From Escherichia phage phiWec179: 64,000 bases of DNA. The position numbers and the translations under genes were made by a program. The notes below the pieces were generated by a model that searched no databases, was not told the DNA's origin, and was given only the letters and a program-made list of their open reading frames with translations. This document shows positions 1-26,323 of this stretch, piece after piece. Position 1 is the stretch's first letter, and each line of letters begins with the position of its first letter. The DNA is taken from sequence record LC739533.1. The stretch is one strand, 5' to 3'.

Positions 1-35
1 GATTTAGCCATGATGTTAATCTCTTTTTCAGTGAG

Positions 36-94
36 GCGGGAACTATTCCCGCGCCCTATGTAATACAGTTTACTCTTTTTATTCGTGCTGTCAA
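36..94 (-). promoter_or_regulatory. Early promoter (TTGACA-N16-TAAACT) with conserved 5' leader hairpin, copy 1
   Basis: Minus strand: -35 TTGACA (89-94), 16-nt spacer, -10 TAAACT (67-72), then GTATTACATAGGGCG and perfect hairpin GCGGGAA/TTCCCGC (36-52). ATG of the next leftward gene is at 9-11; that gene runs off the window. Confidence 0.6.
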
Positions 95-100
95 TGCTTT

Positions 101-454
101 TTATAAATCTTTTTTACGTTTTACATCGCTTGCATGACTGTATACAGCGATCCCATTATCACGACAAAAACGGGTAAGGTATGATCCGCGTGAAAACTCT
201 TTCCCTTCCAGGTCAACAACCTTGCTAAATTCTTCCAGGGCAACGGTATCAAAATGATCACCATAACCATATTGAAACGGCACGTTAACAACTTCAATCA
301 ATTTACCGCCGATCTCAACGTCCACGCTTAAAGAAAAATATGTGTTACCGTAGGACTGTTGAAACCAGCGACGGGCGCTAATGTGAACGGCTTCAATCTC
401 ACCAATTTTAAATTGAGTGTTACCCAGGATCGCAACGTTGATATTTTTAGCCAT
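101..454 (-). CDS. Hypothetical protein (117 aa)
   Basis: Intact ORF in the leftward early cluster; no motif recognised. Confidence 0.6.
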   Translation of the reverse strand: MAKNINVAILGNTQFKIGEIEAVHISARRWFQQSYGNTYFSLSVDVEIGGKLIEVVNVPFQYGYGDHFDTVALEEFSKVVDLEGKEFSRGSYLTRFCRDNGIAVYSHASDVKRKKDL

Positions 455-550
455 GATTTTTTCTCTCTTTTTGGTTAGTGGGAAGTGTTCCCGATAAAAG
501 TTATTATGCTTATACTATCGTTTTTTGTCAATAGTATAAGACTAAAACTT

Positions 551-730
551 TTAACGATAATCATCGTAGGCTTTATTAACCTGGCGAATATAACATTCGA
601 AAGCGAGATCAATAGAATCATATTCCCGCACATAATCCCCGTAAGAAACTACATACACACCTTTTTGATCCTCAAACGTCATGATGATAGAATCCAGGCC
701 GATGATTTCAGTTTTAGCGATGATAGTCAT
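551..730 (-). CDS. Small hypothetical protein (59 aa)
   Basis: ORF MTIIAKTEIIGLD...; just downstream of promoter copy 2; not in the ORF track (<60 aa). Confidence 0.45.
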   Translation of the reverse strand: MTIIAKTEIIGLDSIIMTFEDQKGVYVVSYGDYVREYDSIDLAFECYIRQVNKAYDDYR

Positions 731-751
731 AATAATAACCTTTTTATTGTT

Positions 752-808
752 GGCGGCACCATTGCCGCCCTACGTGATAAACTATACCAGAATTTTAAAC
801 AGTGTCAA
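752..808 (-). promoter_or_regulatory. Early promoter (TTGACA-N16-TATAGT) with conserved 5' leader hairpin, copy 2
   Basis: Minus strand: -35 (803-808), -10 (781-786), then TTATCACGTAGGGCGG and perfect 7-bp hairpin GGCGGCA-AUGG-UGCCGCC (752-769). Confidence 0.6.
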
Positions 809-818
809 ACGTTTTTTC

Positions 819-1064
819 TTAGTTTGCGAAATATGGCGCGGCGGCTGATGCCGTTAATCTCCAAGTGATTTGGCTATCGATCAAGTATTCTTCATTCTTG
901 ATCCGCACGGTATCAATCGAGAAGTTACTGAAAGGCTTGCTCTTGATTTTACGAACAACCGTTACACGACGGTTATTTTTCATCTCTTTTAACTGAATCC
1001 AGGCGTAACCTTTTTCATTGACAAATATTTCATTGTGATTGGTGATAGATGATAAGTGTTTCAT
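819..1064 (-). CDS. Hypothetical protein (81 aa)
   Basis: ORF directly downstream of promoter copy 3. Confidence 0.55.
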   Translation of the reverse strand: MKHLSSITNHNEIFVNEKGYAWIQLKEMKNNRRVTVVRKIKSKPFSNFSIDTVRIKNEEYLIDSQITWRLTASAAAPYFAN

Positions 1065-1087
1065 GATTTTTCTCTCTTCTGTTTTGA

Positions 1088-1147
1088 GCGGTGGACCATT
1101 CCGCCGCCCTATGTGTTACATCTTACTACTTTTTTAAACATTGTCAA
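1088..1147 (-). promoter_or_regulatory. Early promoter (TTGACA-N16-TAAGAT) with conserved 5' leader hairpin, copy 3
   Basis: Minus strand: -35 (1142-1147), -10 (1120-1125), then GTAACACATAGGGCGGCGG and hairpin (1088-1107, one mismatch). Confidence 0.6.
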
Positions 1148-1155
1148 GGATATTT

Positions 1156-1437
1156 TTAACTATATGATCCACATCGTTCGCAGTAGTGATCATCGTCGTC
1201 ATCTGCTACCTGGCTGATAAAATGATCTACCTTTGCTTTCAAATTATTATAATTGCTTTCTACTTCCTGTAGTCGTCGTTGGTAGTATTCCAGGGCTTGC
1301 ACATAGGCCATTTGTTCGGTTTTAGCTTGCATAGCTAAATTCATGCCACGCGTTTCATCGTATAACCAATAACCATCATTACATTCACTAATAGATAGTG
1401 TAGGGCTTAGTTTTTCGTGACGGATAACCTTGCTCAT
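1156..1437 (-). CDS. Hypothetical protein (93 aa)
   Basis: Intact ORF; acidic DDDDD stretch followed by CxxC near the C-terminus. Confidence 0.55.
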   Translation of the reverse strand: MSKVIRHEKLSPTLSISECNDGYWLYDETRGMNLAMQAKTEQMAYVQALEYYQRRLQEVESNYNNLKAKVDHFISQVADDDDDHYCERCGSYS

Positions 1438-1447
1438 AGTGTGCCCC

Positions 1448-1558
1448 TTACTTCAAAATGATTGTTGTGATAACTGCTACGGTGATCCAGAATGGAACAA
1501 CTAAGATAATAGCGTTAATCGTTCCAACTGTCAAACTATTTTCTTTCTTGATCATCAT
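1448..1558 (-). CDS. Putative small hydrophobic peptide (36 aa)
   Basis: MMIKKENSLTVGTINAIILVVPFWITVAVITTIILK; AAGGA RBS. The longer track ORF 1448..1681 would run through the promoter hairpin. Confidence 0.35.
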   Translation of the reverse strand: MMIKKENSLTVGTINAIILVVPFWITVAVITTIILK

Positions 1559-1565
1559 GTTTTCC

Positions 1566-1649
1566 TTACAGTGTCCAAAGAATGATTTCAAGTGCAGCAC
1601 GGAAACCAGGAATAAAATTGATTGCAAAAAACAGGGAAGTAGTAAACAT
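1566..1649 (-). CDS. Putative tiny hydrophobic peptide (27 aa)
   Basis: MFTTSLFFAINFIPGFRAALEIILWTL; ATG about 20 nt downstream of the copy 4 hairpin. Confidence 0.25.
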   Translation of the reverse strand: MFTTSLFFAINFIPGFRAALEIILWTL

Positions 1650-1671
1650 TTTTCTATCCTTTCAGTTGTGA

Positions 1672-1727
1672 GCGGCACCATTGCCGCCTGATGAGTTAAC
1701 TATAAGGGATCACGTTTTACCTGTCAA
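1672..1727 (-). promoter_or_regulatory. Early promoter (TTGACA-N17-TATAGT) with conserved 5' leader hairpin, copy 4
   Basis: Minus strand: -35 (1722-1727), -10 (1699-1704), then TAACTCATCAGGCGG and hairpin GCGGCAAUGGUGCCGC (1672-1687). Confidence 0.55.
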
Positions 1728-2281
1728 CCTAAATCATCAAAATAAAGATAATTTTTTTCGGCTTCTTTCTTCTCTTCCTGTGATGCCTCAAAGACTGGGA
1801 GAAAGTGATCAAAGGCGACGCACTCAACCGCTTGATCGTCTTCCTCTTCCTGGTCTTCCTCCTGGGCTATGGCTGCAATTTTGGCTAATTTCCTTTCAGC
1901 CTGGATCAGCTTACCATCTAAAACGCTTTTAGCGGTGCTGTACGCCGTCCAAGTGATGCGCTTACTTTCCAGCGCGGCATCAAGCGCCGCTATCTTGCTG
2001 GGGTATTCATCCAGGACACGAAAAGCCGGATCTACCTTGTACAGCGGATTATCTTTCGCGCCGTCGCTATCATCTGCGGCGCTTGCAATGTCAGCGTTAC
2101 CATTCGCCAGCCAACCAGGGCGATCGCTGCGTGTTTTGGTATTCCCATGACTACGCGCCGATCTGTTGCCTACTTGCTCGCCACTATAGCCAGGAGCATG
2201 ATCGATCATGTCGTCCGGTATAATGCGCGGATCATTAACGTCATGTTTTACCCAGGACTGGATCACATATTCGCGCCCCAT
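1724..2281 (-). CDS. Hypothetical protein (185 aa)
   Basis: Intact ORF with acidic C-terminal region (EEDQEEEDD); no motif recognised. Confidence 0.6.
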   Translation of the reverse strand: MGREYVIQSWVKHDVNDPRIIPDDMIDHAPGYSGEQVGNRSARSHGNTKTRSDRPGWLANGNADIASAADDSDGAKDNPLYKVDPAFRVLDEYPSKIAALDAALESKRITWTAYSTAKSVLDGKLIQAERKLAKIAAIAQEEDQEEEDDQAVECVAFDHFLPVFEASQEEKKEAEKNYLYFDDLG

Positions 2282-2541
2282 TATACACCCCTTTTAACAA
2301 TCATTTCACACACAAGAAATAAGCTGGCGGAATCACGGCAAGGATAGAAAGATGTACGATAATCTCTCACCCCTGCTTTTATGATCTCCGTGGTTTTACC
2401 TGATAGCACATTGTAAATAGTGTAACTTGTCGGACTGTTTTTATATACCTTGCCAGGGTAGATCATAACATAACGAGCAAGGTTATAAAATTCCTCGTTA
2501 CGAAAGGCTATGATCTTCCCGCATACCTTAAGAAAGTGCAC
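2281..2541 (-). CDS. Hypothetical protein (86 aa), GTG start
   Basis: GTG at 2539-2541 preceded by AAGGGGG RBS; stop overlaps the start of the downstream gene. Confidence 0.45.
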   Translation of the reverse strand: MHFLKVCGKIIAFRNEEFYNLARYVMIYPGKVYKNSPTSYTIYNVLSGKTTEIIKAGVRDYRTSFYPCRDSASLFLVCEMIVKRGV

Positions 2542-2551
2542 GTTAGCCCCC

Positions 2552-2824
2552 TTACAGCAAAAAGTTTACTTGTCTTGCTGTTAATGTAGTATCAACCATT
2601 TTCGGGCTTTTATAATTGACAAAACGCGCGGTTTTTTCAATAGCGAAGCCGAGATAATCTTGTTTGTTGAAATTACATTCTTTCTTAAATGTTTCCCGTG
2701 CAATGGCGATCGCTGCGTCCAGGGATAAACGCCCGTCAATATTGATATTTGCGAAAGATCCGCCACCGCTCATAGGTTTACCAGTGGTGCCCGTTACGAT
2801 CATTGTTGCGCTATATGATGCCAT
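2552..2824 (-). CDS. Hypothetical protein (90 aa)
   Basis: Start taken at the internal Met (MASYSATMIV...) downstream of the copy 5 hairpin; the track start at 2860 lies inside the hairpin. Confidence 0.55.
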   Translation of the reverse strand: MASYSATMIVTGTTGKPMSGGGSFANINIDGRLSLDAAIAIARETFKKECNFNKQDYLGFAIEKTARFVNYKSPKMVDTTLTARQVNFLL

Positions 2825-2846
2825 GATGATAATCTCTCTTAGTTGT

Positions 2847-2908
2847 GAGCGGTGGACCATTCCGCCGCTCTACGTGATACATCTTATCAGGTTGTTGCCT
2901 GTTGTCAA
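2847..2908 (-). promoter_or_regulatory. Early promoter (TTGACA-N16-TAAGAT) with conserved 5' leader hairpin, copy 5
   Basis: Minus strand: -35 (2903-2908), -10 (2881-2886), then GTATCACGTAGAGCGGCGG and hairpin 2847-2870. Confidence 0.6.
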
Positions 2909-2914
2909 TACTTT

Positions 2915-3112
2915 TTATTCAAGCCCTACGATATGTAAGACACGGCGATTAGCAATAGCGTGCTGGTCTTCTGTTATAACGCCCATTTCTACCAGTGAAT
3001 CAAGAAAGGAAAGCACCGTGATATATTCGTCATCGGGTACACTCATTTCATTAGTACCGTTTACCACTACGTTGATTTGTCCTGCTTTCGCTACAATGTG
3101 CAATGTTGCCAT
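2915..3112 (-). CDS. Hypothetical protein (65 aa)
   Basis: Intact ORF with GGAG RBS; first gene of the leftward small-gene cluster. Confidence 0.5.
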   Translation of the reverse strand: MATLHIVAKAGQINVVVNGTNEMSVPDDEYITVLSFLDSLVEMGVITEDQHAIANRRVLHIVGLE

Positions 3113-3309
3113 GATCTTAACTCCAGGTGATGAATGATGTTTTTTGTTGGTTGACGGTGGATTATGGAGATCCTCACCTTTGCCCGTCCTGCATTGCGCC
3201 CTCCTGTTGTTTATTGTCGTTGTGCCTCGCCCCCCTCGACAAGATTAATACTACGCTACCAGGTGCGGAACGTCAACGACTTTTTCAATCTTTTTTATTT
3301 TCTTTTTGC

Positions 3310-3338
3310 TTGCTATATATAAAGGAAAGGGCTATCAT
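3310..3338 (+). promoter_or_regulatory. Putative sigma70-like promoter (TTGCTA-N17-TATCAT)
   Basis: Hexamers at 3310-3315 and 3333-3338, upstream of the rightward ORF at 3387. Confidence 0.35.
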
Positions 3339-3386
3339 CTTTCTACCGCGCCAACCAGGGCGCACAACAGAAGAAAGGGCGACACC

Positions 3387-3653
3387 ATGACAACTACTAC
3401 ATTACACCTTATGCACTCGTTAGGCTGGCAAGGCGGCACGGTCCACCAGGTAGCAAGCGCAACGGGCTTAAAGGTTGAAACAGTTCTCAACCTGGGCGAT
3501 CATAAAGTGGAAGAGATAGACCATTTTGATCCGTTCGCTGATGGTTATCTCTGGGCTTGCAGTGGCGGCGGGGAAAGCAAGATACCGCCAGCCGCGCGGG
3601 GCGATATGCATTTTTGGTTAGGTGTTCTCTCCTGGCAAGAAAACAAAAAATAA
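3387..3653 (+). CDS. Hypothetical protein (88 aa)
   Basis: ORF MTTTTLHLMHSLGWQGG...; divergent from the leftward cluster. Confidence 0.45.
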   Translation: MTTTTLHLMHSLGWQGGTVHQVASATGLKVETVLNLGDHKVEEIDHFDPFADGYLWACSGGGESKIPPAARGDMHFWLGVLSWQENKK

Positions 3654-3655
3654 TC

Positions 3656-3684
3656 TTGACAAGCCCAGGGATCGGGCTTATACT
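3656..3684 (+). promoter_or_regulatory. Consensus sigma70 promoter (TTGACA-N17-TATACT) firing into a non-coding region
   Basis: Perfect -35 at 3656-3661, 17-nt spacer, -10 TATACT at 3679-3684. No credible ORF with an RBS lies downstream before about 4470. Confidence 0.6.
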
Positions 3685-3908
3685 GTTTTACATACAGAAG
3701 AGGAAGCGCCACCCCACGGCGTAAAGGCGGGGCTAACATACCAGGGGCACTGGTTGGAAGGTCGATCGCCGGGAGGCTGGGCGCTATATATTTGTAAAGA
3801 AATGTAAAGATAAAATAATCGCTTGCTTTCCTGGCTGGATCTGTTATTCTTATTACATGGCGAGGGGACACGGGAGCGCGAGACAATCACCGGACCTGCC
3901 CGTCATTC

Positions 3909-4020
3909 TGCAAATGAGAAAAATTCTCATTTGCAAATAAGACTCATTCGCATTTAATAATTGAATGAGAATCATTCTCATTCTCATTCGTATTTCGATT
4001 TTAAGTGAGAATAATTCTCA
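3909..4020. repeat. Three palindromic operator-like sites with core TGAGAA-N1-3-TTCTCA
   Basis: Palindromes at 3909-3935 (12-bp arms), 3963-3983 (10-bp arms) and 4006-4020 (7-bp arms). Confidence 0.7.
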
Positions 4021-4034
4021 TTTCGGTAATTTTC

Positions 4035-4219
4035 ACGTAAACTTTAGAATTTGCTTTTCAACTTTCACTTTTGTAAAAGCAAAAAAACTTTAAATACCTG
4101 GTGCGCGCGACTTTTTAAAAAATTTTTCTCGGTTTTTTGCTTTGAAATCTGGCCCACCAATTTGAGATAGTGTACGTAAACTTTAGAATTTGGTTTTGGA
4201 TTCTCACTTTTGTAAACTC
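4035..4219. repeat. Imperfect ~46-bp direct repeat pair plus TTGAGATA triplet
   Basis: ACGTAAACTTTAGAATTT identical at 4035-4052 and 4174-4191, with similar extensions ending ACTTTTGTAAA. TTGAGATA occurs at 4162, 4248 and 4271. AT-rich context. Confidence 0.7.
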
Positions 4220-4375
4220 GTAAAAAGTTTAAATAATTGTAGGGATTTTGAGATAGTTTGCTTGTAAGGTTTGAGATAATCCTTCCCGAAGATGTTACGC
4301 AGCCTACAGCCTACCTGAATGCTCGTCTAACGAGATTAACTCTAAAAGATGAGTGTTGGTGTAGCTAAAGAGAAA

Positions 4376-4402
4376 AGGCTCTCTACGGTGTTGTAGGAGC
4401 CT
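4376..4402. terminator. Intrinsic terminator hairpin, probably bidirectional
   Basis: Stem AGGCUC/GAGCCU with extended CUAC/GUAG pairing; T-rich tail on the minus strand (UUUUCUCUUU) after the leftward operon, weaker T-tract on plus. Confidence 0.55.
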
Positions 4403-4473
4403 TATTTCTGTGGCACAAAGTTGACGTATTCTTTTTAAAAACGAATTTTTTCAAAATATCACGAATATCGCCT

Positions 4474-5001
4474 TTATGGTATTTTGGCTGGGAACAGGAT
4501 TTTAATCAGATTGTTGTGGTATTGTCCTAAAAGATTCTGCCCTTTCCAGTTGGCAGGATTAAGCACCCCTGGTTCGTACATACCCATTCCAATTCCGTAA
4601 ACCTTATCATAAGGACTCGCCTCAACGAACGTTTTGAATTGGTACAGTCGCAAGTCAGAATAAAGATCAGGGTTCTGTGTATACTTCAAGCATAAGCCTC
4701 GCATTACGATACGCTCTCGGTACTCTTCCCACATGTCATTATTAAAACCAGACACCGCTCGACCCATGCGCTTGTAGTATGCCTGTCCCTTCTCGTCGTC
4801 ACGCTTCATTGAGTGATCAAGGATAGCTGCTGCGATTACCTGATCCTTGAACAGCAAAGCCTTACGCCACATCATGTATTGCTCTACACAACAGAAAGTT
4901 TCATTGTACCCTGGTTCCGTCTCTGTGAATGGTGCAATGTACCAATTGCTAAACACATCTTTATGTGAAAAGAAGAATACATATTCATTAGTTATTCGCA
5001 T
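4474..5001 (-). CDS. NADAR (YbiA-like, DUF1768) domain protein; candidate ADP-ribosyl-guanine hydrolase
   Basis: Recalled YbiA/NADAR family motifs: FFFSHKDVFSNWY, CCVEQYMMWRKALLF, RMGR, YTQNPDL...FVEASPYD..YGIGMG...NLLGQ. Confidence 0.8.
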   Translation of the reverse strand: MRITNEYVFFFSHKDVFSNWYIAPFTETEPGYNETFCCVEQYMMWRKALLFKDQVIAAAILDHSMKRDDEKGQAYYKRMGRAVSGFNNDMWEEYRERIVMRGLCLKYTQNPDLYSDLRLYQFKTFVEASPYDKVYGIGMGMYEPGVLNPANWKGQNLLGQYHNNLIKILFPAKIP

Positions 5002-5176
5002 TTTTCATGCCTCTTAAGACTTCAGCTTGCCCGTCTTGAAAAGCTTTCATCAGAACTATCTTAAGATTGACTTCCAAGCGTTCTTCATCCTCTTTATAAC
5101 AATCCAACACTGCCTTAAGTTCATCATAGTGGTTCAGAATAGGTTTAAAGATTTCATGATCTGCTAAACGTGCCAT
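4988..5176 (-). CDS. Hypothetical protein (62 aa)
   Basis: Start at MARLADHEIF with AAGGAG RBS; the track's upstream Met at 5212 has no RBS. Confidence 0.5.
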   Translation of the reverse strand: MARLADHEIFKPILNHYDELKAVLDCYKEDEERLEVNLKIVLMKAFQDGQAEVLRGMKNANN

Positions 5177-5189
5177 AGTTTCTCCTTTG

Positions 5190-5555
5190 TTAGTCCATCC
5201 ACCAGTAGCCATAAACTGCGTCTGCGTCGATGAGTTTGTGTTTGTTGTTCCGCATGTAGTCTAAGATAAGTAGACGTTTATTGTATCTGGAGAGATTATG
5301 ACCCTCTTTTCCGCCATAGTCAAAATATTTTGCAAGACTTTTACACTCAAACAAAATCAGTTCGGGAGTTTCTTCACATTGGTCTGTCTGGTACACTTGA
5401 CGGATGATCATGTATACGTCATCGTCTTCCGCTAAGTGCTCTACTGGTCCACACCCAGCAGGAATAAATTCATAGTCCCATCGAATCAGATGTTTCTCTA
5501 CTGCTTCAAAGAAATCCATTTTTTCGCTACGCATGATCTGAACATCAATTAACAT
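5190..5555 (-). CDS. Hypothetical protein (121 aa)
   Basis: ORF with AGGAGG RBS; overlaps the stop of the upstream gene. Confidence 0.55.
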   Translation of the reverse strand: MLIDVQIMRSEKMDFFEAVEKHLIRWDYEFIPAGCGPVEHLAEDDDVYMIIRQVYQTDQCEETPELILFECKSLAKYFDYGGKEGHNLSRYNKRLLILDYMRNNKHKLIDADAVYGYWWMD

Positions 5556-6561
5556 AATTTTCCTCCTGTCTCATTATTCCACCTGCTTGGTTGATAGCAC
5601 TTAAGACAACAGCCAAATCCTCACGCAGGAAGGTTTCACTATGACCGTCTTTCATGTGCAACGCTTCCACACAGCCGATAGACGGTAGGATCTGATCAGT
5701 CTTAGATTTTAGCTTACTCTCTAACGCCCTGCAAGCCTGGTAGGACGGCAGATCAAACAATGCTACACGTTGCATAAAGTAGTTATTATTTGCATTCTGA
5801 ATCTTCAAACGTATATCACTATCCTTTGCAATCCCCAGCTTGAAAGCTCCCGTATCTTCTCCATACTCATCAAGGATAACGTTGATGTAAAATTCTTGCT
5901 GTGATCTGCCTTTACATTCAGAACAACCATTCCCACTTAGATACTTATTAGGTGTTATCGTTTGTTCTCCGTGCTCACTACATAAATATTTAAACTTAGA
6001 CATGGTTCCCACCTTACCAACGAACCCTATAAACTGGTCCCCTCGTTCCTGGCAAGCTTCAGTCATACGGAAAATCCATTGCGCAGGAGTGTAACGATGG
6101 TTTTTAGAACAACGGCAAGCAAGCAGCCCATCTCTAAGACTGCTCCTCGTTACTTCAAACCTACCGTTACACACGCCAGCCTTTACATATTCGTCATGAG
6201 AACATACGGAACACTTAACTATCCAATAAGCCGCCCATCCTTTACTATCTAATCTATCACTACGATAATACTCACGCGGAACGTTATCAGGACACGCTTT
6301 GTTAAAGGTTGTGATATGGATTGAATCATCAATTAAACATGTTTGCCTTATTGCTTCCACCCTACAACCTTTACAACCACTTCCTATTTTAGCATTATCT
6401 ATAGAAGTTGTTCTCCATTCCCCATGTATAGAACATTCACAGGTTAGTTTAGTGCGTGCCCCCTTCCATTCACCATGCCACCCCGTAATGGTCCACGGTT
6501 TATCCTGGTAAGCTTGTTCTATTTCTTCCTGATATTCCTCCCAACTTTTAGCCCTCATCAT
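5545..6561 (-). CDS. T5orf172-type (GIY-YIG superfamily) domain protein with N-terminal Cys-rich repeats; homing-endonuclease-like
   Basis: C-terminus FKLGIAKDSDIRLKIQN...ACRALESKL...KDGHSETF fits the T5orf172 pattern; CxxC / C..HG repeats in the N-terminal part. Paralog of 10129..11082. Confidence 0.6.
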   Translation of the reverse strand: MMRAKSWEEYQEEIEQAYQDKPWTITGWHGEWKGARTKLTCECSIHGEWRTTSIDNAKIGSGCKGCRVEAIRQTCLIDDSIHITTFNKACPDNVPREYYRSDRLDSKGWAAYWIVKCSVCSHDEYVKAGVCNGRFEVTRSSLRDGLLACRCSKNHRYTPAQWIFRMTEACQERGDQFIGFVGKVGTMSKFKYLCSEHGEQTITPNKYLSGNGCSECKGRSQQEFYINVILDEYGEDTGAFKLGIAKDSDIRLKIQNANNNYFMQRVALFDLPSYQACRALESKLKSKTDQILPSIGCVEALHMKDGHSETFLREDLAVVLSAINQAGGIMRQEENYVN

Positions 6562-6575
6562 CCCCCCTACAACAA

Positions 6576-6593
6576 ATGCCCCTTGCGGGGCAT
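6576..6593 (-). terminator. GC hairpin (AUGCCCC-UUGC-GGGGCAU), terminator-like
   Basis: Between the AAA+ ATPase stop and the T5orf172 start; weak U-tract on the minus strand. Same GCCCCTTGCGGGGC core as the late terminator at 49347-49360. Confidence 0.35.
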
Positions 6594-6598
6594 CTTTA

Positions 6599-7738
6599 TT
6601 AGAACACGCTACTTAAGGTTGCAGATCGTGTAGTGGTTGGTTCCAGAACCACACGGAACGTATCCCCAGGTTTATCGCTCACTACTACAATCTTACCACC
6701 TTCGATCAGGTCACACTTCAAACCTTCGGCAGTAGCTTTCAGGTCGATGCGTGGATCGCCATCATCATCCAGGATAACGTAGCTGCTATCTTCGAGAGGC
6801 TCCAGTTCTTCGTCTTTCACGGCTTCCAGGTAGATGTTCAGTTCACATGCACCAGACAAGAACTTGGTAGGAGTGAACTCATGCCAGTTGTTGACCCAGT
6901 TAGGCTTGATAGCTTTACCGTTGACAACAATAGAGCTAATCGTCCAGCGTGCATCGTTACCCAGAGAGATACCCATCATCTCCAGACAGGTCTTGAACGT
7001 CATTTTCGGATAGAAGTTTAACTCTTCTACGATCCCTTGAATAACATCGAAAGACAGTTCAGTGCTAACATCCCACAAACGTTGGAAGCTTTCAACATGT
7101 TTGCGATTCTTCAGATTCTTGTCCAGGTAGTCCAGCATAGTTTCAATAGACAGTTTGTCGTAGTTGAAGCTATAGAAGATACGGCTCGGACGGTTGACGA
7201 AGTATTCCGAGATGTATCCGCTGTTCTTTGTCAGCATGAACAGTTTGTTACCGCTACCTGTGCCATCCAGCAGAGTCAGCAGTGCTTCCTGATCTTCCTT
7301 CTTGGAATACACTTTGTCGAACTCATCGAACAGTACTACTGCGCGTTCAGAGATCTTACTCATGAACTCCAGGAAATTGGCATCAGAATATGGCTGCGTT
7401 ACCAGAATAGTTGGGATTCCCAGGTCTTCCGCTTCCAACAGAGTGTTACTGATCAGTTTTGCCAGCATTGTCTTGCCACTGCCTTTTGTACCCGACAACA
7501 GGACACCTGTGTTCTTACCTTCTTTACTACGACGAGCGAAGGTACGGATAACGTGGGCTGCACGTTCTTTGGTTTCCCCGTACAGGCGATCAGGAATCGT
7601 GAACTTATCAGCGCGACTAAGAGAATAGTTACCATGTGGATCACAATTGACAGTCCAAACGCCAGCGGGGAGTTTATCAACCTCTACACCAAAATCTTTA
7701 TTAACAATTGCAACATCCCCATAAACTGTGTATTTCAT
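6599..7738 (-). CDS. AAA+ family ATPase
   Basis: Walker A GTKGSGKT, Walker B VVLFDEFD, downstream arginine-containing segment NRPSRI. Confidence 0.75.
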   Translation of the reverse strand: MKYTVYGDVAIVNKDFGVEVDKLPAGVWTVNCDPHGNYSLSRADKFTIPDRLYGETKERAAHVIRTFARRSKEGKNTGVLLSGTKGSGKTMLAKLISNTLLEAEDLGIPTILVTQPYSDANFLEFMSKISERAVVLFDEFDKVYSKKEDQEALLTLLDGTGSGNKLFMLTKNSGYISEYFVNRPSRIFYSFNYDKLSIETMLDYLDKNLKNRKHVESFQRLWDVSTELSFDVIQGIVEELNFYPKMTFKTCLEMMGISLGNDARWTISSIVVNGKAIKPNWVNNWHEFTPTKFLSGACELNIYLEAVKDEELEPLEDSSYVILDDDGDPRIDLKATAEGLKCDLIEGGKIVVVSDKPGDTFRVVLEPTTTRSATLSSVF

Positions 7739-7763
7739 TTACTTTCTCCTCTTCTGTTGGAAT

Positions 7764-7798
7764 AGACGTATTATCTCTTGTCTAATACGTCTTGTCAA
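7764..7798 (-). promoter_or_regulatory. Promoter (TTGACA-N17-GATAAT) embedded in a 10-bp inverted repeat
   Basis: Minus strand: -35 (7793-7798), -10 (7770-7775). Perfect inverted repeat AGACGTATTA (7764-7773) / TAATACGTCT (7783-7792) spans the -10 box. Confidence 0.5.
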
Positions 7799-7806
7799 TA
7801 CTTGTT

Positions 7807-8166
7807 TTAGATCCCTTCGCCTTTAGTGATGATAGCTTCCATCACCACAGCTTTCTTCTTACGTTGAACATCTTGACGGATCAGGAGGCTACCACCTTGA
7901 TCATCCTTATACTGCTTCATGATGATGAAGTTGTTGCCACACACAGCGCCGATAGCCACGTATGGGCGATTAGAATTATCCACATCCGCAGATGGGGTTA
8001 CATCCGTGCAAGTAAAGAACTTGCCATCAGGATCAGTATAAGCAAAGTGGCCTTTAGCAGTTACTGCAACTTCTCCGGTGCTTGTGGACTGTGCAGCCAC
8101 AAACGGTGCAGCAGATGCTACGAAACTTGCAGACAGCAGGGCTACAGCTAAAATAATCTTTTTCAT
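7807..8166 (-). CDS. Secreted protein with N-terminal signal peptide (119 aa)
   Basis: MKKIILAVALLSASFVASA then mature domain; AGAGGAG RBS. Confidence 0.65.
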   Translation of the reverse strand: MKKIILAVALLSASFVASAAPFVAAQSTSTGEVAVTAKGHFAYTDPDGKFFTCTDVTPSADVDNSNRPYVAIGAVCGNNFIIMKQYKDDQGGSLLIRQDVQRKKKAVVMEAIITKGEGI

Positions 8167-8178
8167 GGTGATCTCCTC

Positions 8179-8340
8179 TTATTCCAACAACATACACAAT
8201 GCAGCTACAACCAAGAACAGAGTAGCCACGCTTAAAGCGATAAACATTCCTAATTGAGAATGAAATTCGCCTATGATAGGTGCAGACAACGCACTTAGCA
8301 AACAACCTGTCAAACTTGCTTTGATAATAAGATCTAACAT
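8179..8340 (-). CDS. Small hydrophobic membrane protein (53 aa)
   Basis: MLDLIIKASLTGCLLSALSAPIIGEFHSQLGMFIALSVATLFLVVAALCMLLE; strong AGGAGG RBS; not in the ORF track. Confidence 0.45.
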   Translation of the reverse strand: MLDLIIKASLTGCLLSALSAPIIGEFHSQLGMFIALSVATLFLVVAALCMLLE

Positions 8341-8348
8341 ATTACCTC

Positions 8349-8600
8349 CTACAATTCCACAATAGTTTTATCTAAGTGGTGTGCCTCAACTTGAGATAAG
8401 GTTAGCACTTCAACCAAACCTCTGTCAATACCTAATTTGATCACTTGCAAATAATCACCGAAAAGATCAGAGATTTCAATCTGGTGTTCAGTAACCACCA
8501 CGACCTCGTTACCCTTGGTATACTCTCTCCAGATTCGTCCACACTTATAAATGAAATCTTTCTGGTCTTCACTGATCATCTTAGGCTTAACGCTTAACAT
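8349..8600 (-). CDS. Hypothetical protein (83 aa)
   Basis: Intact ORF with GGGAG RBS; ATG overlaps the upstream stop. Confidence 0.55.
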   Translation of the reverse strand: MLSVKPKMISEDQKDFIYKCGRIWREYTKGNEVVVVTEHQIEISDLFGDYLQVIKLGIDRGLVEVLTLSQVEAHHLDKTIVEL

Positions 8601-8938
8601 TACATACTCCCGTAGTCTGGTTCAATATGGTGTTTACGACAAATAGCATCCCAACGTTCACTACCGAAACCCCGTCCGTGTAGTGCATCGTATGCGAAAT
8701 GTTCTGCCAACCACAATACTACACCATCTGGTTCAGTGTCAAGCGGAATTCGAAATTCTCGATCATAACGCATACGGAGAACAAACTCATTACCGTCTTC
8801 CAGGAGATGCATGTGACTTTTCGCTCGTGATGCCAAGTCAAAGAAAGGTGCCTCGTCTTTCCAAACCTGGCGCTCAACCTCAATACCGTGATCAACTACC
8901 AGGGTAGCAATCACATCTTTCATTTCTTTACTAAACAT
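8600..8938 (-). CDS. Hypothetical protein (112 aa)
   Basis: Start at MFSKEMKDV with AGGAGGG RBS; the track start at 8968 would overlap the upstream gene by 22 nt. Confidence 0.55.
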   Translation of the reverse strand: MFSKEMKDVIATLVVDHGIEVERQVWKDEAPFFDLASRAKSHMHLLEDGNEFVLRMRYDREFRIPLDTEPDGVVLWLAEHFAYDALHGRGFGSERWDAICRKHHIEPDYGSM

Positions 8939-8946
8939 ATTCCCTC

Positions 8947-9192
8947 CTAATAATGTTTTAAAGTCCACTCAATACCTGACGGGTAACTGCCTCGACAAAT
9001 CTTACCATCGGAATGCCAGTTAATGCTATCAGGGAAAGTATGATTTAGTGTTTTTTCATGAGGAAGCCATTCTGTAGGCTTCTCTCCACCATTGATCCAT
9101 ACAAAACCTTCGTCTTCCAGTAAACCTAAAGCAAACTCCATCTCTTCTGCATCGTGAACCGTTACTTTCTGACCTTTCTGTAATTTAATCAT
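8947..9192 (-). CDS. Hypothetical protein (81 aa)
   Basis: Intact ORF in the leftward operon. Confidence 0.55.
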   Translation of the reverse strand: MIKLQKGQKVTVHDAEEMEFALGLLEDEGFVWINGGEKPTEWLPHEKTLNHTFPDSINWHSDGKICRGSYPSGIEWTLKHY

Positions 9193-9201
9193 ATTACCCC
9201 C

Positions 9202-9375
9202 TTAACCAATTAGTTGGACTGCCTTGCAGATGTAAATCCAAACAGGACTAAGCATAAGTGCTACAATACTGGGGTAAATCCCTTTTGGCTCTATCTCAAT
9301 TATTGATAAGATTAAGGTGACAGCACTGATAAACATATAAGCTCCCAAGAAAGCCAGCGTCAAGAATTCAGACAT
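9202..9375 (-). CDS. Small membrane protein (57 aa)
   Basis: Start at MSEFLTLAFLGAYMFISAVTLIL with GGAG RBS; two hydrophobic segments. Confidence 0.5.
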   Translation of the reverse strand: MSEFLTLAFLGAYMFISAVTLILSIIEIEPKGIYPSIVALMLSPVWIYICKAVQLIG

Positions 9376-9377
9376 AA

Positions 9378-9710
9378 TTAGCTCCACAAGTTATGAAAAT
9401 ATTCAGCAAACAGGCAACGACCTTCGATTTTATCCGTTTTGGTCATAACGGATTCAGGTTTAAAACCTTCAATCATTTGATCAATAATGGATAACCACTC
9501 CACTGTAGCTTCCCGCTCCTGCTCTTCTGTTAGTTTACGGTAATCTGACACATATTTAGCCCAAATCTTAGATGGGATAAGGATATCCCCTCGTTCCACA
9601 ATACGTGCCTTGAACGCGTACAGTCCAGCACAGATAATCGCGGAGAACGTATCATCCAGGTCTTGCAGATCTTCTACGCCAAATTGTAATTCATCATGGA
9701 TAATTTTCAT
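9378..9710 (-). CDS. Hypothetical protein (110 aa)
   Basis: Intact ORF; 4-nt overlap with the upstream gene. Confidence 0.6.
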   Translation of the reverse strand: MKIIHDELQFGVEDLQDLDDTFSAIICAGLYAFKARIVERGDILIPSKIWAKYVSDYRKLTEEQEREATVEWLSIIDQMIEGFKPESVMTKTDKIEGRCLFAEYFHNLWS

Positions 9711-9994
9711 TTTGTTTCTCCCCGCTCTGCGTCTAATTTCAATAAGAAGGCTGCATACTCTTCCGAACCTTTGTGTAAGAACATACGATAAGAACTCACC
9801 AGTTTCTTCGTTGTTGTATAACGCTCCATTCCGCCGACAACCCCTGTACCGAGAGTGTAGAGAACAACACCTTCAACCCCAACATGGGTTACGACTTCAA
9901 CCATGTCCGTGTTATCCCAGTGATATTTAGGGGATACAATAAGATCGCCAACTGCTAATTTGATGTTTGCCGCTTCGTCTTGTGAATAGTACAT
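9707..9994 (-). CDS. Hypothetical protein (95 aa)
   Basis: First gene of the leftward operon, downstream of the divergent promoter. Confidence 0.6.
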   Translation of the reverse strand: MYYSQDEAANIKLAVGDLIVSPKYHWDNTDMVEVVTHVGVEGVVLYTLGTGVVGGMERYTTTKKLVSSYRMFLHKGSEEYAAFLLKLDAERGETK

Positions 9995-10039
9995 TTTGTT
10001 CTCCTCTCACATTAGGACACGTTTTGTGTCGATGGGTGT

Positions 10040-10104
10040 AGATTACGTGAGCACAAAGGGGTTGTCAACTACTTATTGACAAAAATTTCTAAACGTTGTA
10101 AATT
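10040..10104. promoter_or_regulatory. Divergent back-to-back sigma70-like promoters
   Basis: Plus: TTGACA (10076-10081)-N17-TAAATT (10099-10104). Minus: TTGACA (10063-10068)-N17-TAATCT (10040-10045). The -35 boxes form the palindrome TTGTCAA-N7-TTGACAA (10062-10082). Confidence 0.6.
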
Positions 10105-10128
10105 AAAAACATCTACAAAGGAGGAAAC

Positions 10129-11082
10129 ATGAAATACGAAGATTTTAAACAAATAGTTAAAGACGATGTGGTATTTGAGAACTTACAGGAAGGTTGTGAA
10201 GTCTTAGGTTGGACAGAAAGAGATAGAAACTTTGCAAAAATATACGTAATACGTTGTAGTGTTTGTGCCAAAGACCCCGAAATGTATGGAGATGGTCTTT
10301 TTACAGCTACAAAAGGGCGTTTAGTGAAAGGTCAGAAATGTTGCGCGTGCGCTGTATCCTTTAAATACAGTCAAAACCAACACCTAATTCTGCTAAACAG
10401 GCATTTAAGTGTCGCAGGGTACAGCATAGTTTCTATTGGTGCTTGGGAGTGTTCTAAGACGAGAATAGAGTTTAGTTGTGAGAATGGACACACGAAGAAC
10501 AGAACCCTGGCTCAAGCAAAGGTAGTAGAACCTTGTAAACAGTGTCTTGAAGAAGGCTGTACAAAACACAAACAAGATGAGGCAGAGGCAAAAATTATGA
10601 AGATAATAGAAGATAAATGTTTACCTTATGTATTTGTAGGGTGGGATACTTCTTACAAGAATGTAACTTCAAAATTCAACCTCATCTGTTCGGATCACGG
10701 TTTAAAAACAATAAGATACGCTTGTTTCCTAAATGGTCATTTTTGTAACGAGTGTTCTGGTAGAAATTGCCTAAGTCTTTATTTATTAGGAGTTTATGAT
10801 AGAGACTTGTTGGTAGGTTTAAAATTTGGCATCTCTCAGAGTCCAGTAAGAAGGGTTCAACAGTTAAATAAAAGGAACTTATTTAAATGTAAAATACTAC
10901 AGATTTGGACTTTTACATCACATGATCAAGCTGTACGGATGGAAACATTATTAAAGAACACATTGCGAACTGGAATATTTACTAAAAGAGAGATGAAAGA
11001 TGGTCATACAGAAACCACAGAAGTTACTAATTTAGAAACCATAATGGACCTTATGACCTCATCTCATGGATTGGTTAGTTAA
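10129..11082 (+). CDS. T5orf172-type (GIY-YIG superfamily) domain protein with N-terminal Cys-rich repeats; homing-endonuclease-like
   Basis: C-terminus LKFGISQSPVRRVQQLN...AVRMETLLKN...KDGHTET; CxxC / C..HG repeats. Paralog of 5545..6561. Confidence 0.6.
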   Translation: MKYEDFKQIVKDDVVFENLQEGCEVLGWTERDRNFAKIYVIRCSVCAKDPEMYGDGLFTATKGRLVKGQKCCACAVSFKYSQNQHLILLNRHLSVAGYSIVSIGAWECSKTRIEFSCENGHTKNRTLAQAKVVEPCKQCLEEGCTKHKQDEAEAKIMKIIEDKCLPYVFVGWDTSYKNVTSKFNLICSDHGLKTIRYACFLNGHFCNECSGRNCLSLYLLGVYDRDLLVGLKFGISQSPVRRVQQLNKRNLFKCKILQIWTFTSHDQAVRMETLLKNTLRTGIFTKREMKDGHTETTEVTNLETIMDLMTSSHGLVS

Positions 11083-11377
11083 CAAAAACCTTAACATTTC
11101 CGATGTTCTTGCTGACTTCTTGTGAGAACATTGAAAGTACCTTGTCAAGCAGTTTTACTAATTCATTTGTAATTTGTTCCTCTGAACGAGAAGAAGTAAG
11201 TACCTTACTCTCACCAACGATGTGCATCACCTTGATAGGAGCATTCAGGATAACATTGTGCTTTTCATCTTCTTCGAAAGATGCTAACCACTTCTCATTA
11301 TTCCCGTGCAAAGCCACGATAACACCAAAACCGTTAATAGTTTGTGAAATGTTCTTAGTTGCTAATGTAATGTTCAT
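11075..11377 (-). CDS. Hypothetical protein (100 aa), antisense-oriented within the rightward block
   Basis: Own promoter and AGAGAGG RBS; 3' end overlaps the 3' end of 10129..11082 by 8 nt. Confidence 0.55.
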   Translation of the reverse strand: MNITLATKNISQTINGFGVIVALHGNNEKWLASFEEDEKHNVILNAPIKVMHIVGESKVLTSSRSEEQITNELVKLLDKVLSMFSQEVSKNIGNVKVFVN

Positions 11378-11405
11378 TGTTCACCTCTCTTAATAATGTA
11401 GGGCT

Positions 11406-11433
11406 ATTGTACACTAAAAATATTTCAGGTCAA
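11406..11433 (-). promoter_or_regulatory. Promoter (TTGACC-N16-TACAAT) for 11075..11377
   Basis: Minus strand: -35 (11428-11433), -10 (11406-11411). Confidence 0.5.
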
Positions 11434-11494
11434 GTGTTGACAAGCTTTTTGGTTCTGTTATGATTAGCTCATACTAAATGAGAGGAGAAAACAA

Positions 11495-11932
11495 ATGCAA
11501 AACATCAAACTGACTTGGACCGAAGCTAAAGAAGCAATGAAGGAAGGTAGACGTGTTAAACACGAGTATTTCTGTGGTGGGGAATGGTTTGAGATGCAAT
11601 ATGGTGTTATTCTGGACGAACATGGTTATAATATGACTGATTGGTATCGTGACGAAGCTTGGCAGGATGATGGTTGGTCTGTGGTTGAGAAAGAAGGTAA
11701 TGAGGAAGAAGGACTGTTGTCTAATGTAGAGCGCGAAATGCGGGAAACAAAGGTGCCCGAACTGGACTACCATCACCTGGAACTTCTTGTGGCAGCATCT
11801 TTCGCTACTGGAGATACAATGTGGCAAACTCCGGTGTCCCGTGTCGATAACCAAAATAAACCGTCTGCCCGTAATCACAAGCTTTACAAAGGTAAAGGTC
11901 ATAACAAACTGAAGAAAGGAAAGAAGAAATGA
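11495..11932 (+). CDS. DUF2829-like protein (the family that includes anti-Thoeris Tad2) with Lys-rich C-terminal extension
   Basis: N-terminus LTWTEAKEAMKEGRRVKHEYF and later WQDDGWSVV resemble the recalled DUF2829 pattern; family call is from memory. Confidence 0.4.
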   Translation: MQNIKLTWTEAKEAMKEGRRVKHEYFCGGEWFEMQYGVILDEHGYNMTDWYRDEAWQDDGWSVVEKEGNEEEGLLSNVEREMRETKVPELDYHHLELLVAASFATGDTMWQTPVSRVDNQNKPSARNHKLYKGKGHNKLKKGKKK

Positions 11933-12075
11933 TCTACAAAAACAAGTTCACTGGTTGTCTACGTAAGTTTGTCGATAAAAAAGGTTATGTTTCGCTTGAC
12001 AACGGGACTACATGGGTGCAGAATGGGACTTCAGAACAATTGATCAAGGCTCTGCCTTACTACGAGGAGGTTTAA
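11929..12075 (+). CDS. Small hypothetical protein (48 aa)
   Basis: ATGA-coupled to the upstream gene; ends immediately before the next ATG; not in the ORF track. Confidence 0.4.
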   Translation: MIYKNKFTGCLRKFVDKKGYVSLDNGTTWVQNGTSEQLIKALPYYEEV

Positions 12076-26264: not shown

Positions 26265-26323
26265 TTGACAAGGTTTTAGAATAGAGTAAGATGTATCACA
26301 TGAGGCGGGGAGTGGTTCCCCGC
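26265..26323 (+). promoter_or_regulatory. Conserved early promoter (TTGACA-N16-TAAGAT) with 5' leader hairpin, plus-strand copy upstream of terC
   Basis: -35 (26265-26270), -10 (26287-26292), then GTATCACATGAGGCGG and hairpin GCGGGGA/TCCCCGC (26305-26323). Confidence 0.6.

Follow-up and report, generated by a model that had tools for sequence, protein, structure and literature searches.

The flagged stretch of this phage genome quite likely marks the left-hand border of a free-standing CapR/T5orf172-type gene cassette, and its palindrome of two -35 boxes would have arisen when the cassette was inserted beside an older promoter. On the sequence evidence, the stretch is probably a divergent pair of sigma-70 promoters at the edge of a mobile gene. 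Both components are of known kinds, namely back-to-back sigma-70 promoters and a free-standing homing-endonuclease cassette that carries its own promoter, and the origin of the arrangement is traceable.

The window, which is the whole stretch of 64,000 nucleotides that was analysed, is 100% identical over positions 9000-12000 to Escherichia phage phiWec181 (LC739534.1; Stephanstirmvirinae, Phapecoctavirus), and a window coordinate equals the position in that record minus 48118. Minus-strand genes fill positions 1-9994 with a single exception, and a plus-strand block of genes runs from 11495 to about 46585, 35 kb rightward. Two facing genes separate the blocks, one of them a plus-strand open reading frame (ORF; 10129-11082) and the other on the minus strand (11075-11377). 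The latter is a DUF7325 gene (Pfam PF24011) with a replaced C-terminal tail, which reads ..SQEVSKNIGNVKVFVN in the window and ..DNAPIDTKRVLM in relatives. It overlaps the 3' end of the plus-strand ORF, an endonuclease gene, head-on by 8 nt, and it holds its own copy of TTGACAA at 11142-11148. On the other side lies the first gene downstream of the leftward promoter, an annotated minus-strand coding sequence of 95 amino acids with a phage Tudor domain (9707-9994; Pfam PF24144, E=1.4e-24). Its ribosome-binding site (RBS), GAGAGGAGAA at 9999-10008 on the minus strand, is kept in relatives.

The palindrome described in the sequence-only reading is exact to the base. Positions 10062-10082 read TTGTCAA-CTACTTA-TTGACAA, with the 7-mers at 10062-10068 and 10076-10082, and the span given for the whole element, 10040-10104, runs exactly from one -10 box to the other. 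The symmetry stops at the 7-mers, as the bases beside them are not complementary (G10061 and A10083, C10069 and A10075), and the 7-nt gap CTACTTA (10069-10075) has no internal complementarity. The form of the palindrome follows from its parts because two copies of TTGACAA in opposite orientation necessarily read TTGTCAA-N7-TTGACAA, and TTGACAa is the usual -35 form throughout the phage. As an exact 21-mer pattern it is found a single time in the window and in none of 100 shuffles. Two perfect hexamers back to back and 0-30 nt apart are expected 0.38 times and are found at least once in 34 of 100 shuffles; such pairs are by themselves not rare. An excess of near-matches to the palindrome (up to two mismatches) was discarded as evidence. 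TTGACAA differs from its complement TTGTCAA in the central base only, so any copy fits either half-site and the excess is an artefact. The exact 21-mer has no match in IMG/VR. The looser pattern TTGTCAA-N7-TTGACAAAANTTT returned 10 IMG/VR and 106 metagenome matches, and it was set aside since none is homologous to the locus and the motif alone is shared.

The promoter-like elements themselves are another matter. TTGACA followed at 16-18 nt by TAnnnT occurs 22 times in the window versus 2.7 times in shuffles (about 8-fold), and at exactly 17 nt the counts are 8 versus 0.9 (about 9-fold), so such sites are mostly not due to chance. Two other features of the window concern promoters away from the flagged stretch. 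A repeated cassette lies at 94, 808, 1147, 1727, and 2908 on the minus strand and at 26265 on the plus strand. It consists of a near-consensus promoter (TTGACA, 16-17 nt, TAnnnT) and, about 8 nt further on, a GC-rich hairpin at the start of the transcript (e.g., TAGGGCGGCGGAATGGTCCACCGCTCA), whose computed folding energies lie between -14 and -16 kcal/mol. This cassette resembles the promoter/stem-loop “PeSL” cassettes of T4-like phages (PMC2839356, PMC4122927); the hairpin is missing from the flagged promoters. The second feature is a region of about 800 nt at 3654-4473, behind a plus-strand promoter with 11 of 12 matches at 3656, that has no annotated gene and no ORF longer than about 110 amino acids. 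It yielded no tRNA and no credible Rfam match and may be a non-coding RNA or hold missed small genes.

The rightward promoter is the clearer of the flagged pair. Its -35 box, TTGACAA at 10076-10082 on the plus strand, is the right half of the palindrome (hexamer TTGACA at 10076-10081) and is kept in a sister lineage represented by contig L014. The -10 box, TAAATT at 10099-10104, follows a 17-nt spacer and reads TAGATT in L014. With 10 of 12 consensus matches, TTGACA-17-TAAATT was detected by the promoter scan as an element of the sigma-70 type. Transcription is predicted to start at about 10111, and the RBS AAGGAGG (10118-10124), invariant in contigs L014-L019, comes next, ahead of the ATG at 10129; the promoter lies at a workable distance from this gene.

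The gene behind this promoter, at 10129-11082 on the plus strand, encodes a 317-residue protein that is similar to CapR-domain/T5orf172 homing endonucleases by Pfam and PHROG. The CapR domain (PF21817) is found in two stretches with E=1.5e-20 and 73.6 bits versus a cut-off of 24.2. The nuclease region stays below the Pfam cut-offs (MUG113, 19.4 bits versus 22.3; T5orf172, 15.1 versus 20), and residues 97-311 match PHROG 681, “endonuclease,” with E=5.9e-59. The dN/dS ratio against a homologue of 74% identity is 0.10, indicating purifying selection on the endonuclease. From the layout, the rightward promoter would serve this inserted gene only. A second endonuclease-like gene matching PHROG 681 (E=5.7e-57) is present on the minus strand at 5545-6558; its C-terminal half is 28% identical to the ORF at 10129-11082, and it is co-oriented with its own neighbours.

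The leftward promoter is less regular. Its -35 box, TTGACAA on the minus strand at 10062-10068 (hexamer 10068 to 10063), is the left half of the palindrome and is in register with an ancestral TTGACAA. The candidate -10 box, TAATCT (10045 to 10040), lies 17 nt downstream. The element has 9 of 12 matches, with six of six in the -35 and three of six in the -10 relative to TATAAT (T1, A2, and T6 are present), which leaves TAATCT below the scan threshold of at least four of six per hexamer. The same TAATCT serves as the -10 of a conserved rightward promoter in phage phi92. The predicted leftward start at about 10033 is followed by GAGAGGAGAA and by the ATG of the Tudor gene at 9994. Thus, of the divergent promoters proposed earlier, two outward-pointing promoter-like elements of the sigma-70 type do lie within 65 bp, their -35 boxes form the palindrome, and the boxes are kept in the sister lineage; the weak point is the leftward -10 with its three matches of six.

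This leftward element is carried by a relic. The 62 nt at 10007-10068 on the minus strand, from TTGACAA to the old stop codon, are a non-coding remnant of the ancestral 3' end of DUF7325, recognized by alignment with insert-free sites and with the relic of L014, and their end still reads ..PIDTKRVLM*. In the window and in ENA contig L019, the relic has been rewritten over the 22-24 nt that lead from its -35 to the conserved ...CACCCATCGAC end, with about one-third of positions still matching. The rewritten patch (10039-10061 in the window) has the same length as its counterpart in the sister lineage, so neither the 17-nt spacing nor the distance to the RBS has changed. Compensating insertions and deletions are one possible derivation of the patch. 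Judging from the -10, which appears degraded to TAATCT, the leftward promoter is probably weaker in phiWec181 than in the sister lineage.

The history of the locus can be read from its relatives. In phages nieznany, ESCO5, phiWec188, and PsgM04F, the Tudor homologue is followed directly by the DUF7325 homologue, or by one extra minus-strand gene between them, and the 317-residue ORF is absent from the locus in all four. More than 100 related phages lack the endonuclease gene, with the flanking genes abutting. Carriers of the region with the insert are limited to phiWec181, phiWec186, and a small number of assembly contigs (Logan, ENA). Among the 106 records matching a 3-kb query, phiWec181 alone covers at least 80% in one piece; phiWec186 is identical where matched, and its record begins inside the ORF. 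All 135 records matched by the DUF7325 protein of IMG/VR contig L006 cover at least 80% of that protein. Among otherwise collinear relatives, some have the endonuclease gene at this one site and others lack it, and its flanks are mosaic.

By pairwise alignment, L006 is the closest insert-free relative. (The other locus returned by the single-protein searches for related loci, L007, is an unrelated distant homologue.) From 11127 onward the window is 100% identical to L006, and the left flank is about 70% identical, with homology ending at 10038. These junctions, 10038/10039 and 11126/11127, define a 1088-bp segment, 10039-11126, that replaces 8 nt (TGATAATG, read leftward) of L006. Contig L019 carries an identical endonuclease with a different DUF7325 allele. 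Together, the sharp change in identity and the allele difference indicate recombination break-points at the endonuclease gene. Since homology to L006 ends at 10038, the left box could be taken as part of the inserted DNA, a reading that was overturned by the L014 lineage, in which the box belongs to a duplicated ancestral segment.

That sister lineage was found by a protein search of Logan assemblies of public sequencing runs, which returned an endonuclease (P0002) of 74% identity. It sits at the same site in a nieznany-like background, with the same intergenic length of 134 bp. In contigs L014-L018 the relic is an intact ancestral gene end with TTGACA-17-GATAAT, and leftward TTGACAACCTTCTTCGGATGTTTGATAATGCACCC...TGA lies to the left of TTGTCAA. 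Across the cassette, the DUF7325 gene of the same lineage carries TTGACAATGTTCTTCGGATGTTTG ahead of its new tail. A direct repeat of 24 nt, identical at 22 positions, thus flanks the cassette, and the repeat and the intact relic together identify the left half of the palindrome as a duplicated ancestral intragenic -35.

The sister lineage also bears on whether the boxes are under selection. Both 7-mers are identical between the two endonuclease lineages (14 of 14 positions), compared with 39 of 53 of the other upstream positions, and the gap, CCACCGA in the sister lineage, is identical at four of seven positions and equal in length. Fourfold-degenerate sites of the endonuclease gene are 60% identical, and identity is 79% over the 67 nt that run from TTGTCAA up to the ATG. 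For the identity of the boxes, P is about 0.001 when the neutral baseline is taken and about 0.04 with the local one. It lends modest support to selection on both boxes, modest because just two endonuclease lineages are available and the gene has diverged less at its 5' end than in its middle.

A third carrier separates the two promoters. The site is occupied in Klebsiella phage FKP3 by an “endonuclease” of 33% identity, oriented convergently as in the window, with a cassette promoter TTGACA-18-TATACT that begins TTGACAAAGAAT. Its new DUF7325 tail, ..DVKVYL*, resembles that of the window, ..NVKVFVN*. At the FKP3 locus the relic has been trimmed away, and there is no leftward partner promoter. 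The FKP3 case implies that the rightward promoter belongs to the cassette and that the leftward one is optional, being left over from the target; a promoter at this position is not indispensable. The endonuclease homologues of Acinetobacter phage ABPH49 and Pectobacterium phage DU_PP_I lie at other loci and are informative only for whether such genes bring their own promoter; the DU_PP_I gene does carry one of the sigma-70-like type.

What the cassette landed beside is an old element. In all seven insert-free sequences examined, which span three deep lineages, the last 60 nt of DUF7325 hold a leftward promoter-like element. It reads TTGACA-17-GATAAT in L006 (2739-2767), nieznany, ESCO5, phiWec188, and PsgM04F, with the variants TTGACA-17-GACAAT in phi92 and TTGACT-17-GATAAT in phage KP13-26. 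The spacers diverge strongly among the seven. The -35 coincides with the codons CTT-GAC-AAx (Leu-Asp-Asn/Lys), and the element spans Leu-Asp-Asn...Asp-Asn. Conservation of the amino acids (L-D, F-D-N-A-P) explains part of its retention. The codons used are minority choices, as CTT accounts for 17% of the Leu codons of the phage and GAC for 31% of its Asp codons. Retention in three deep lineages suggests a constraint beyond the protein, and the intragenic TTGACA-17-GATAAT may act as a functional promoter for genes downstream of it.

The two major transcription directions do not part at the palindrome. The sequence-only reading had placed their divergence at 10040-10104, which is not borne out: the 35-kb rightward block starts at 11495, behind the intergenic region 11378-11494, and the flagged rightward promoter would serve one inserted gene. 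From the gene layout and the promoter sequences, the conserved divergence of the two large gene blocks is at 11378-11494, 1.3 kb to the right of the palindrome. It contains a conserved divergent promoter pair (11406-11464) with a leftward TTGACC (11433 to 11428), 16 nt, and TACAAT (10 of 12 in the scan), and a rightward TTGACA (11437-11442), 16 nt, and TATGAT (11 of 12). The two -35 boxes are 3 bp apart (GGTCAA-GTG-TTGACA). This geometry is kept in nieznany, phiWec188, FKP3, and KP13-26; in phi92, the rightward promoter alone passes the scan. The image of mirrored -35 boxes heading both major directions fits this region better. The two pairs are alike in their back-to-back -35 boxes, their 16-17-nt spacers, and their compact intergenic regions of 117-134 bp. 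They differ in that the pair at 11378-11494 has a 3-bp gap, heads both blocks, and is conserved across the subfamily, in Phapecoctavirus and in Klebsiella phages (partly so in phi92), whereas the flagged pair has a 7-bp gap and is lineage-specific.

These observations can be put together in the following way. Ancestrally, DUF7325 would have stood directly before the Tudor gene, with TTGACA-17-GATAAT in its last 60 nt. The cassette would then have entered antisense within the 3' end of the gene that opens the leftward early operon, DUF7325, and the insertion would have duplicated about 24 nt of target. One target copy was presumably retained in the DUF7325 gene, which acquired a new tail. The other copy and the old gene end would have become the non-coding relic facing the Tudor gene. 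The cassette promoter, TTGACA-17-TAAATT, would thereby have been placed 7 bp from the relic -35, pointing the opposite way.

In such a layout, the host sigma-70 polymerase would use both promoters early in infection. The leftward one would re-initiate or boost transcription of about eight genes, the Tudor gene (9994) and the seven behind it, to about 7800, where the next strong leftward promoter (11 of 12 matches) is found at 7798. Leftward initiation would restore expression that otherwise needs read-through from 11433 over a 1.1-kb antisense gene. A literature search found no transcription start mapping for Phapecoctavirus or phiWec181. The centres of the flagged -35 boxes are 13 bp apart, and the predicted starts (about 10033 and 10111) are about 78 bp apart, so the upstream contacts of each polymerase would fall on the -35 region of the other, and mutual interference is plausible. 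The two polymerases, whose competition the sequence-only reading had also raised, would probably compete for upstream contacts; this would be a side effect of the geometry, with no dedicated switch.

The most serious rival explanation holds that only the rightward promoter works. The left TTGTCAA would then be a decaying remnant of duplicated coding sequence, and the leftward genes would be transcribed by read-through from 11433 and from downstream promoters such as that at 7798. The poor leftward -10 with its sub-threshold score, the scrambling of the relic spacer and -10 in the phiWec181 lineage, and the fact that FKP3 copes without a leftward promoter here all speak for it. So does the lack of any terminator-like site between 11433 and 9994, which makes read-through possible, as well as the further leftward promoter, with its 11 of 12 matches, at 7798. 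Against it, the -35 7-mer is intact though about two-thirds of the adjoining 22 nt have changed, and the left half keeps exactly its 17-nt spacing and its distance to the RBS. Also, the combination TTGACA-17-TAnnnT stands about 9-fold above chance in this phage, and one of the conserved promoters of phi92 has TAATCT as its -10. A silent left half is accordingly judged unlikely, though it deserves more weight than the other alternatives.

Two further explanations give the palindrome itself a function. In one, it is an operator through which a dimeric host or phage factor, or the CapR domain of the endonuclease, co-regulates the endonuclease promoter and the leftward operon. In its favour, the 7+7 inverted repeat is perfect and kept in two lineages, and there are precedents in the CapR of the Vibrio satellite PLE, whose binding at the -35 of a phage promoter represses that promoter, and in I-TevI, which represses its own promoter (PMC8096241). 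Against it, the half-sites are indistinguishable from the generic TTGACAa that is widespread in the window, the symmetry does not extend even one base beyond them, the motif occurs just once in 64 kb, the gap of the other divergent region is 3 bp, and the left half is missing in FKP3. These same points tell against the earlier suggestion of one dimeric factor. CapR-type zinc-finger domains are also not known to read palindromes as dimers, and an operator of any kind is very improbable. The specific form in which the CapR domain of the endonuclease binds the paired -35 boxes, represses its own promoter, and tunes the leftward early operon is a similarly long shot. If true, a selfish gene would couple its own expression to that of its phage host, and the locus would be a natural intermediate between a homing endonuclease and a CapR-like transcription factor. 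Least credible of all is a hairpin in DNA or RNA, such as a terminator or a site at which read-through transcripts are processed. On paper the sequence can form a 7-8-bp stem and a 5-7-nt loop, but as RNA its folding energies of -7.6 and -6.1 kcal/mol have z scores of -1.3 and -0.1 relative to shuffles, no U-tract follows the stem, a terminator scan of 8500-11500 was negative, and there is no Rfam match.

An inserted cassette beside an older intragenic promoter remains the preferred reading, and it makes the locus a worked example of how a striking palindrome in a control region can be the by-product of a mobile gene that came to rest 7 bp from a pre-existing intragenic box. It also suggests how a homing-endonuclease-like gene can enter an operon antisense without silencing the genes behind it, as the insertion duplicated the piece that carries the intragenic promoter. 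The carriers and their relatives offer three natural states for measuring how back-to-back promoters interfere: without the insert, with the insert and an intact leftward promoter, and with the insert and a weakened one. No new regulatory principle is revealed.

Among known systems, lambda PR/PRM is the familiar case of promoters that point outward from a shared region, with starts 82 bp apart. The flagged pair is like pairs of the PR/PRM type in that its promoters share their upstream regions and a polymerase bound at one could hinder the other. It is unlike PR/PRM in having no evident repressor or operator and in having two consensus -35 boxes 7 bp apart. About 14% of Escherichia coli promoters overlap an opposite promoter, and interference between overlapping divergent promoters, including lambda PR/PRM, has been described at start-to-start distances like that of the flagged pair (PMC3167631).

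The inserted gene has its own close parallels. CapR-domain/T5orf172 proteins are a homing-endonuclease family of phage ICP1 and many other phages, and the satellite CapR, which binds a phage promoter at its -35 region, is a member that has been domesticated (PMC8096241, PMC10448857). Like the ICP1-type genes, the one described here has an N-terminal CapR zinc finger, a candidate C-terminal T5orf172-like region, and its own promoter. It also shares with the family its presence or absence at a fixed site and its place at a boundary of genetic exchange (100% versus about 70% identity in the flanks); this combination fits the habit of the family at recombination boundaries. It differs from the known genes in that its nuclease domain is below threshold and its nuclease activity and homing are putative. 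It further differs from them in lying antisense in an operon and in having duplicated 24 nt of its target, so that an intragenic promoter is preserved. A last comparison is with I-TevI, which represses itself at its own T4 late promoter (cited in PMC8096241). I-TevI illustrates that the binding site of a homing endonuclease may overlap the promoter of its own gene; the difference is that the I-TevI operator resembles its homing site, whereas the half-sites of the flagged palindrome are plain -35 boxes.
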